This document shows, piece after piece, positions 28,367-29,669 of a stretch of 29,669 nt of DNA. Both the position numbers and the translations under genes were made by a program. This DNA comes from Chitinophagia bacterium (lineage in GTDB: Bacteria > Bacteroidota > Bacteroidia > Chitinophagales > Chitinophagaceae), in NCBI GenBank assembly GCA_010021705.1, contig RGMU01000001.1, forward strand, positions 1-29,669, read 5' to 3'. Numbering within the stretch: position 1 is the stretch's first letter; each line of letters begins with the position of its first letter. Below the pieces are notes generated by a model. That model was not told the DNA's origin, searched no databases, and saw nothing but the letters and a program-made list of their open reading frames with translations.

Positions 28367-28900
28367 TTAGTTGGCTTCTGCTGCCTTTGGCGCACCCATC
28401 ATAGGGGCATCGGCAGTGGGTCCGTACATACCCGGTACCGCTACATTGATTAAACGCAAATACACGCTTAATTGCCCGCGGTGGTGAAACAAATGGCTGT
28501 AGCTAAAGGAGCGTAGCACGGCTATTTTGGGTAGCGTAAAAAATACATGGTCGCCGTGGCGCAAAGTCCAAGTCTTATACAGGTCGGCTTCGGTGCAGCC
28601 TTCTAAGCAAGCTATGGCAGCAGCCACCTTAGAGTCTTGCAAGGCAAGCAAATCGTCAACAGACGTAGCAGTATAAGGCTTAAATTCGCGTGCAGCAAAG
28701 TCAAGCTCGTCAGCCCCGATAATGGTGTTTGTCCAGCCGGAAATTTCAGCAATGTGTGTAGCCAATCTACCTAAAGACATTGACTTTTCGTGAGGCTTAA
28801 AGTCTGAATGCTCAAAAGGAACGGTGGCAAGCATTTTGCGCGTGTTGGCTGCTTCCATTTGCATTTCCATAATAAACGATTGTAGTGGTCCGATACCCAT
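28367..28900 (-). CDS. DinB family protein (second copy)
   Basis: FKPHEKSMSLGRLATHIAE and HLFHHRGQLSVYLR...PG.YGP. Confidence 0.9.
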   Translation of the reverse strand: MGIGPLQSFIMEMQMEAANTRKMLATVPFEHSDFKPHEKSMSLGRLATHIAEISGWTNTIIGADELDFAAREFKPYTATSVDDLLALQDSKVAAAIACLEGCTEADLYKTWTLRHGDHVFFTLPKIAVLRSFSYSHLFHHRGQLSVYLRLINVAVPGMYGPTADAPMMGAPKAAEAN

Positions 28901-28938
28901 AAAATAATAATTTTATGGCAAGGATAAACTCCGCTTCA

Positions 28939-28997
28939 ATACCTGACCATAGAAAGTAGCTATACTACATTTTACAGAAAATAATTTTGTGGTATCA
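28939..28997 (+). repeat. 59-bp segment repeated exactly at 29611-29669 (window end)
   Basis: atacctgaccatagaaagtagctatactacattttacagaaaataattttgtggtatca is identical at both positions, offset 672. Confidence 0.95.
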
Positions 28998-29015
28998 AAA
29001 AGAATAGTATCTTTG
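28986..29015 (+). promoter_or_regulatory. Complete Bacteroidota promoter (TTTG ... TATCTTTG) upstream of tRNA-like copy 1
   Basis: -33 TTTG at 28986-28989 and -7 TATCTTTG at 29008-29015. Confidence 0.75.
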
Positions 29016-29054
29016 CGCGCCGTTTGAAAAAGCGGTATAGTTTTTATAGTTTTT

Positions 29055-29127
29055 GATCTCGTAGCTCACTTGGTAGAGCATCCCGCTTTTTGCGGGAGGG
29101 TCTTGGGTTTTAGTCCCAAAGGTATCA
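29055..29127 (+). pseudogene. Degenerate tRNA-Lys(TTT)-like element, copy 1 (73 nt), with palindromic anticodon arm
   Basis: GATCTCG TA GCTC ACTTGGTA GAGC A TCCCG CTTTTTG CGGGA GGGTC TTGGG TTTTAGT CCCAA AGGTATC A. Cloverleaf spacing is intact. However, the T-loop TTCG is changed to TTTT, position 37 is T, and the acceptor stem has two mismatches. Confidence 0.8.
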
Positions 29128-29136
29128 CGCGAGTTT

Positions 29137-29165
29137 AAAAAGCTGTCCAAAAGGTCAGCTTTTTT
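29137..29165 (+). terminator. Terminator after tRNA-like copy 1, 5 nt upstream of the GIY-YIG ATG
   Basis: AAAAA GCTGTCC aaaa GGTCAGC TTTTTT. Confidence 0.75.
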
Positions 29166-29170
29166 GTTAT

Positions 29171-29425
29171 ATGGCGTTTGTGTACATTCTATTTTCAGCT
29201 AAATTGAACAAGTATTATGTTGGCGCATGTACCAACCTTGAAAGGCGTTTATATGAACATAATATTGGTCATTCTACTTTTACGGCAACAGGCACCCCAT
29301 GGGAATTGAAATACACTGAAACTTATAACTCTTTACCGGATGCCAAGAAAAGGGAATTGGAAATCAAGAAAAAGAAATCAAGGGCTTATATTGAAAAACT
29401 CGTAGCCCAGAATAAACGACAGTAG
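29171..29425 (+). CDS. Small stand-alone GIY-YIG nuclease (84 aa)
   Basis: FVYIL.S...KYYVG (GIY-YIG hairpin), LERRL.EHN (catalytic Arg), T....PW.L.Y.E, and A..RE..IK (catalytic Glu). Confidence 0.93.
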   Translation: MAFVYILFSAKLNKYYVGACTNLERRLYEHNIGHSTFTATGTPWELKYTETYNSLPDAKKRELEIKKKKSRAYIEKLVAQNKRQ

Positions 29426-29516
29426 TGGTACGATACCATAAAAATAATAATTTTGCGGTATCAAAAATAATCGTATCGCTGCGCTCCCTTAGAAAAAGGA
29501 AAGTTCTTTTATTATT

Positions 29517-29573
29517 GATATCGTAGCTCAGTTGGTAGAGCATCCCGCTTTTTGCGGGAGGGTCTTGGGTTTT
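29517..29573 (+). pseudogene. tRNA-Lys-like element, copy 2, truncated in the T-loop
   Basis: 55/57 identical to 29055-29111, including the same TCCCGCTTTTTGCGGGA arm at 29543-29559. No 3' half of the T or acceptor stem. Confidence 0.8.
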
Positions 29574-29610
29574 GCGCTGATAGGCTATGGTAGCAGCCAC
29601 CTTAGCTGCC

Positions 29611-29669
29611 ATACCTGACCATAGAAAGTAGCTATACTACATTTTACAGAAAATAATTTTGTGGTATCA
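29611..29669 (+). repeat. Exact copy of 28939-28997; the start of a probable third repeat unit running off the window
   Basis: 59/59 identity; the sequence ends inside the repeat. Confidence 0.9.

Follow-up and report, generated by a model that had tools for sequence, protein, structure and literature searches.

Results

The locus at the 3' end of the contig

The DNA that we analysed (the window, 29,669 nucleotides) is one entire contig of a fragmentary metagenome-assembled genome (2.14 Mb in 535 contigs, about 80% complete) of a Chitinophagia bacterium, and the cassette described here lies at the 3' end of this contig. On its left the locus is bounded by a DinB-family gene on the minus strand (28367..28900; Pfam DinB, E 3.5e-11), pieces of which are repeated further right (repeats D4 and D5). 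All features that follow lie on the plus strand. A leader with a promoter-like unit (28933..29054, repeats D1 and D2) precedes a degenerate, full-length copy of tRNA-Lys (copy 1, 29055..29128), which is followed by a terminator-like hairpin with a T run (29141..29165), a small GIY-YIG gene (29171..29425), and a second copy of the DinB start and leader (29407..29516; D4, 85%; D1, 75%). Next come the 5' 57 nt of a second tRNA-Lys copy that is cut in the T arm (copy 2, 29517..29573; repeat D3, 29512-29573) and, up to the contig end, an interior fragment of DinB with a third leader copy (29584..29669; D5, and D2 at 97%). In the first leader unit, TATCTTTG at 29008-29015 resembles the Bacteroidota -7 element, and relatives carry TATTTTTG at the same spacing ahead of their canonical tRNA-Lys. 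The terminator-like hairpin, which has one stem mismatch, was read from the sequence, having been missed by an automated hairpin scan of the window; relatives have a terminator hairpin at the equivalent place.

The gene encodes an 84-aa, single-domain GIY-YIG protein of Ssn-like type (Pfam GIY-YIG, E 3.6e-13). The match covers residues 2-71 and the protein holds no further domain. In an alignment with relatives, Y5, Y16, R26, H30 and E62 fall on conserved columns, and identity to homologs adjoining tRNA-Lys in other genera is 59-71%. The final six codons and the stop derive from the DinB-start repeat. PDB and NCBIfam searches with the protein did not tell the subfamilies apart. The genome has one gene of this nuclease type; its other small GIY-YIG match, on contig C315, is of a different type and has no tRNA nearby.

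ARAGORN called copy 1 as tRNA-Lys(ttt), and its Rfam tRNA score was 39.6 bits versus 72 bits for the canonical tRNA-Lys of relatives. A canonical cloverleaf has the T-loop TTCGA, a purine at position 37 and a paired acceptor stem, all of which copy 1 lacks: the Rfam alignment contains two acceptor mismatches, the T-loop reads TTTTAGT rather than TTCGAGT, and position 37 is T. Given this T-loop and the T at 37, we consider copy 1 a pseudo-copy. Copy 2 is 95% identical to copy 1 over the 62 nt of D3, whereas the duplicated leader DNA upstream of the copies is only 75-85% identical, and in form copy 2 is like the upstream array units found in relatives. Both copies carry the hairpin TCCCGC-TTTTT-GCGGGA exactly in the anticodon-arm position (hairpin 1, 29081..29097; hairpin 2, identical, 29543..29559), with TAGAGCA, the 3' strand of the D-stem, on the 5' side and GGGTC, of the variable loop, on the 3' side. 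The two hairpins bracket the gene on the same strand as the gene and with the same flanks; the GIY-YIG gene is the sole gene between them, where an HUH Y1 transposase is absent. Folded as single-stranded DNA, the window hairpin reached -7.8 kcal/mol versus -1.4 for the canonical arm.

These results bear out most of what a preliminary description of this DNA had read from the letters alone, namely a GIY-YIG gene with intact catalytic Arg and Glu between two tRNA-Lys-like sequences, a shared palindrome in place of the anticodon arm, lost tRNA hallmarks, and surrounding duplicated DNA that is more diverged than the tRNA-like copies themselves. The better pairing of the copy 2 acceptor strand with the 3' strand of copy 1, also put forward there, is arithmetically right but carries little weight as evidence.

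Support for the assembly and hairpin census of the genome

Logan contigs from three separate lake or freshwater studies supported each junction of the locus: from the DinB start through copy 1 to the ORF, from one hairpin to the other across the ORF, and from the ORF end through copy 2. One Logan contig (X1) links 29610 back to 28939 and closes a repeat loop, so that the number and order of units past 29669 are not fixed by the contig. In two runs the same leader was followed by ATACACTTTT, the canonical arm, which indicates that a normal tRNA-Lys exists in the population, off this contig. None of the listed RNA runs contained any of the stretch.

Across the genome we counted 19 TCCCG..CGGGA sites versus 3-10 in simulations, and five of the 19 are tRNA-Lys-like. 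There is no genome-wide hairpin expansion in this genome, and the amplification suggested in the preliminary description comes down to these 5 tRNA-type copies. At the end of contig C184 (2478-2699; L003-L005) lie at least three tandem 64-nt units, each composed of a tRNA-Lys 3' part with a canonical T-loop and a four-T version of the arm, TCCCGC-TTTT-GCGGGA. The depth of this unit was 3-5x the local depth in two other studies, and a GmrSD_N + HNH gene adjoins the array of tRNA-Lys fragments. Three further hairpins (C27:1490, C255:1423 and C532:387) share the 3' flank GAAGCARCCTMAAG and sit outside any tRNA context; they may represent a second small repeat family.

The hairpin recurs in tRNA copies of relatives

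A native tRNA-Lys with this same arm in relatives would, by the preliminary description's own reckoning, have refuted it. No such arm was seen: the native arm there is ATACA-CTTTTAA-TGTAT or similar, a weak one, and the ATACA/TGTAT arm was also present in reads of the window's population. We surveyed 201 Chitinophagaceae genomes with the pattern GTAGAGYA-TCCCG-N-CGGGA-GG and found it in 15 of them, from 14 genera; a reversed control pattern gave 0 matches in the same 201 genomes. Distribution is patchy, and in several genera the pattern was present in only one of two sampled species. The copies also form arrays, with six copies 5' of the working tRNA-Lys gene in G093, five around the working tRNA-Lys gene in G069, and three 3' of a tRNA-Lys(CTT) gene in G129. 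Each pseudo-copy has the T arm and acceptor of the local working tRNA, yet always the TCCCG stem: the arm is replaced by the hairpin in every copy and never in the working tRNA gene. In many copies the 5' acceptor strand or the T arm is missing.

The hairpin is conserved with compensatory changes, by which the stem is lengthened through paired extensions (TCCCGAT/ATCGGGA, TCCCGC/GCGGGA and TCCCGACT/AGTCGGGA). Among 63 distinct sites the perfect stem usually has 7-8 bp and the loop 3-4 nt, and as single-stranded DNA the hairpins of relatives fold at -7 to -8 kcal/mol versus -1.4 for the native arm. The hairpin is not confined to one tRNA; it was found within Lys, Arg, Met and Ala tRNA copies, in each case with the flanks of the local tRNA, and its loop often retains the local anticodon. 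A hairpin-first scan of species-representative genomes returned at least 120 loci, which span Bacteroidota, Verrucomicrobiota, Elusimicrobia, Armatimonadota, candidate-phyla bacteria and others. Matches to the tRNA-Lys pattern turned up well beyond Bacteroidota too, in records labelled as a Synechococcus MAG (L266), Actinokineospora (L307) and a gammaproteobacterial MAG (L297).

At one orthologous tRNA-Lys locus, one species carries the full cassette, of which its sister species retains no more than some 40 nt similar to the start of the ORF. This remnant lies behind the tRNA-Lys terminator at ~1640-1700 of L354 (G089), and G018 and G069 have similar short ORF-start fragments behind pseudo-copies. 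L217 (381-1765) has a tandem series of ten 5' pseudo-copies of tRNA-Arg(tct), spaced at 103 bp, ahead of the working gene; here the TCCCGAT/ATCGGGA stem reappears, with a T run behind it, in the terminator that separates tRNA from ORF.

Linkage of hairpin, tRNA and nuclease gene

Homologs of the ORF were present in 110 of the 201 Chitinophagaceae genomes, often in tandem. Among the best 30 homolog loci, a canonical tRNA (Lys, Arg(tct), Met, Ala or Ser) stood on the same strand no more than 300 bp upstream at 21, a hairpin followed within 80 bp past the ORF at 20, and at least one hairpin was present at 27. Starting instead from the hairpin, we found a nuclease gene within 700 bp at 84 of 182 sites, many of the remaining sites sitting at locus edges, and the gene was on the hairpin's strand in 83 of these 84. 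The association of the hairpin with the small GIY-YIG gene greatly exceeds chance, as the preliminary description had predicted.

In several relatives, as seen in L211, L213, L203 and L210, the ORF terminates at the TAG contained in GGTAGAGCA, the D-arm motif of the pseudo-tRNA that follows; where that TAG is mutated, the frame continues to a TAA in the hairpin loop. Tandem arrays of the GIY-YIG homolog reach eight or more units with a period of ~365 bp, some of the copies carrying stop codons (G145:C12:24898-28762, G081:C1:2371907-2373230 and G104:C1:3195156-3201132).

In the protein tree, an Ala-linked clade stands beside a Lys-linked clade in which an Arg-linked group is nested. Clades that follow tRNA type imply that switches of tRNA type are rare; they also make any co-evolution of hairpin and enzyme inseparable from tRNA type. 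An assignment of the G022 cassette at tRNA-Lys as an Ala-type cassette was contradicted by the tree and was dropped.

Passive tandem duplication, or att-site leftovers of integrative elements at tRNA-Lys, would make the nuclease a bystander, its surroundings possibly inflated by misassembly. The contig does end in repeats with an assembly loop, and duplications of tRNA 3' parts are typical of integrases, but the window's gene list has no integrase near the cassette and the junctions recur in three separate studies. Nor would it be expected on this account that the hairpin occupies the arm of every copy and never that of a working gene, or that 83 of 84 linked genes share its strand. We therefore regard such an origin as very improbable; the layout of hairpins and nuclease is due neither to chance nor to misassembly.

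Kinship with Ssn nucleases

Ssn proteins, which were introduced in 2025 as the first site-specific endonucleases for ssDNA, are single-domain GIY-YIG enzymes whose binding site is the NTS hairpin repeat in ssDNA and whose cut falls upstream of this repeat (Chenal et al., 2025; PMC11893778). They are inactive on dsDNA and RNA, and SsnA does not bind RNA. Their genes are typically flanked by hairpins, the NTS core is TCCCGC..GCGGGA, and SsnA of Neisseria meningitidis reduces the integration of NTS-flanked DNA; the paper makes no mention of tRNA (PMC11893778).

SsnA was sought in the sampled Neisseria genomes, which returned only UPF0213-like and UvrC-like matches; in N. lactamica and N. mucosa the UPF0213-like small GIY-YIG genes had no adjoining NTS. 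As the reference type, in place of SsnA itself, we used genes flanked by exact NTS (from Anaerolineales and gammaproteobacterial MAGs) together with Sphingopyxis homologs. A profile of 30 window-type proteins scored 37-53 bits against the NTS-flanked genes versus only 15-17 bits against the UPF0213-like Neisseria proteins, and the reverse profile gave 26-47 bits versus 18-19 bits. The hhalign comparison of the window-type and NTS-flanked profiles returned 98.8% (E 7e-17) over 74 columns. A tblastn search with the window protein against 120 loci with exact NTS gave nothing at E 0.01, which means that the kinship is visible only at the profile level.

The core of the window hairpin is the NTS core, with similar stability as ssDNA. 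The published SRM regex matched 4 other sites of the genome but neither of the window hairpins, which differ from it in the 5' flank (GAGCA versus GTCA) and in a conserved C that lies two bases further from the stem. No tRNA adjoined the sampled NTS-flanked relatives. Taken together, the profile kinship, the SRM mismatch and the tRNA-free surroundings of the NTS relatives point to a tRNA-associated branch with its own site and, judged from sequence comparison, the window nuclease belongs to the same broad family as the NTS-flanked Ssn type. Like the Ssn/NTS pairs (PMC11893778), it combines a single-domain GIY-YIG protein of ~90 aa with a gene bracketed by directly oriented GC-rich hairpins. 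Unlike theirs, its hairpins occupy the anticodon-arm position of tRNA pseudo-copies and have tRNA flanks, and they number few in the window's genome, compared with hundreds for NTS.

The kinship also bears on whether the pseudo-tRNAs act as RNA, either as processing or stabilising ends for the nuclease mRNA or as non-decoding, tRNA-like decoys. A promoter-like leader precedes copy 1 and a terminator follows it, and in relatives whose ORF stops within the D arm of the next copy, ORF and copy are co-transcribed by layout. Copies without a 5' acceptor strand or T arm, however, cannot fold as tRNA, the conservation of a particular stem sequence across phyla goes beyond mere stability, and the failure of SsnA to bind RNA (PMC11893778) speaks against such a role as well. 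We give this possibility little credence, and found no support for 'tRNA-mimicking' at the RNA level, as the preliminary description had phrased it.

Discussion

We lean towards the explanation that an Ssn-like nuclease and its cognate hairpins make up a small selfish cassette that lives at tRNA genes. The patchy recurrence of the unit and its arrays agree with the selfish behaviour first proposed for it. By analogy with SsnA and NTS, the two TCCCGC...GCGGGA hairpins, each built into a tRNA-Lys copy, would be the putative cognate recognition sites: in single-stranded DNA, the hairpin extruded on the tRNA-sense strand would be bound by the enzyme, which may nick a few bases 5' of it, in the D arm. 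A nick at that place would fit the downstream partial copies that start in the D arm, and also the TAGAGCR on the immediate 5' side of the hairpin, which persists even in copies that have lost the remainder of their 5' half. Repair between the many tRNA-homologous segments could then yield partial tRNA duplications and arrays, and the same repair may occasionally carry gene and hairpin to another tRNA gene. Since GIY-YIG nucleases catalyse hydrolysis but no ligation, spread would have to depend on host repair. With one intact tRNA copy left, the cost to the host would be low. The window carries a rearranged cassette, whose upstream tRNA copy has turned into a pseudo-copy and whose ORF 3' end has been replaced by the DinB-start repeat. 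What the enzyme binds, where it cuts and how the cassette spreads are inferred, and a 'writing' of the hairpin into tRNA arms by the enzyme, as the preliminary description had it, is unproven.

A classical homing endonuclease would instead cleave the canonical tRNA gene, as duplex DNA, in genomes that lack the cassette, with the hairpin copies as cleavage-immune targets. The precedent is SegB, a free-standing GIY-YIG homing endonuclease in the tRNA gene cluster of phage T4 (PMC2330249), with which the cassette shares a GIY-YIG gene lodged among tRNA genes and selfish inheritance. A gene in or beside tRNA genes, a patchy distribution and an altered arm exactly at a possible target position all agree with homing. 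SegB is a larger enzyme with a DNA-binding part and cleaves dsDNA, whereas the 84-aa protein of the window consists of the catalytic domain alone, and hairpin-bearing pseudo-tRNAs are not described for SegB. Moreover, an intact canonical tRNA adjoins the gene, which would leave the carrier without immunity, an immunity scar would not require the same stem in different tRNAs and phyla, and the protein is kin to the ssDNA-specific Ssn type. On balance, we consider homing of this kind unlikely.

The nuclease might also be a domesticated host function that restricts or tunes the recombination of incoming ssDNA at tRNA loci, much as SsnA and NTS do in Neisseria transformation. The reduced integration of NTS-flanked DNA by SsnA (PMC11893778) is in line with this, and tRNA-Lys loci are island sites, as the GmrSD-HNH gene by the C184 array exemplifies. 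A maintained function sits poorly, however, with presence that is patchy within genera, with the frequency of broken copies and remnants, and with tandem gene arrays that appear selfish; we judge this explanation improbable.

The selfish cassette that we favour has counterparts in the REP/RAYT and IS200/IS605 systems, in which a small nuclease gene is likewise bracketed by ssDNA hairpins and the repeats occur in arrays. They differ in that those systems use HUH Y1 enzymes, whereas the GIY-YIG fold is hydrolytic and forms no covalent intermediate, and in that the hairpins here are embedded in tRNA copies. The REP/RAYT-like idea of the preliminary description was thus partly right, but the pairing of nuclease and hairpin had already been published, and the comparison with IS200/IS605 and REP was made by the Ssn authors themselves (PMC11893778); the statement that nothing of this kind had been functionally characterised was outdated for that pairing. 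What is new is the embedding of the hairpins in tRNA copies: our literature search found no published description of Ssn-type hairpins inside tRNA copies.

A bolder proposal, which we offer tentatively as possible rather than probable, is that tRNA-nested Ssn cassettes are undescribed minimal mobile elements that spread via hairpin nicking and host repair, with tRNA genes as the ancestral niche of the free NTS/SRM repeats. Flanked by GAGCR and RGGTC, the anticodon arm of tRNA genes is itself already similar to the site.

In genome annotation, tRNA-nested cassettes account for tandem arrays of pseudo-tRNAs and for many puzzling calls, 'tRNA-undetermined' or suppressor-like. They also name a candidate substrate, in which the hairpin is framed by its D-arm and variable-loop flanks. 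For the role of Ssn nucleases outside Neisseria, a large, multi-phylum subfamily with sites built from tRNA gives a concrete handle, and the embedding in tRNA suggests a natural niche, and possibly the origin, of the hairpins.
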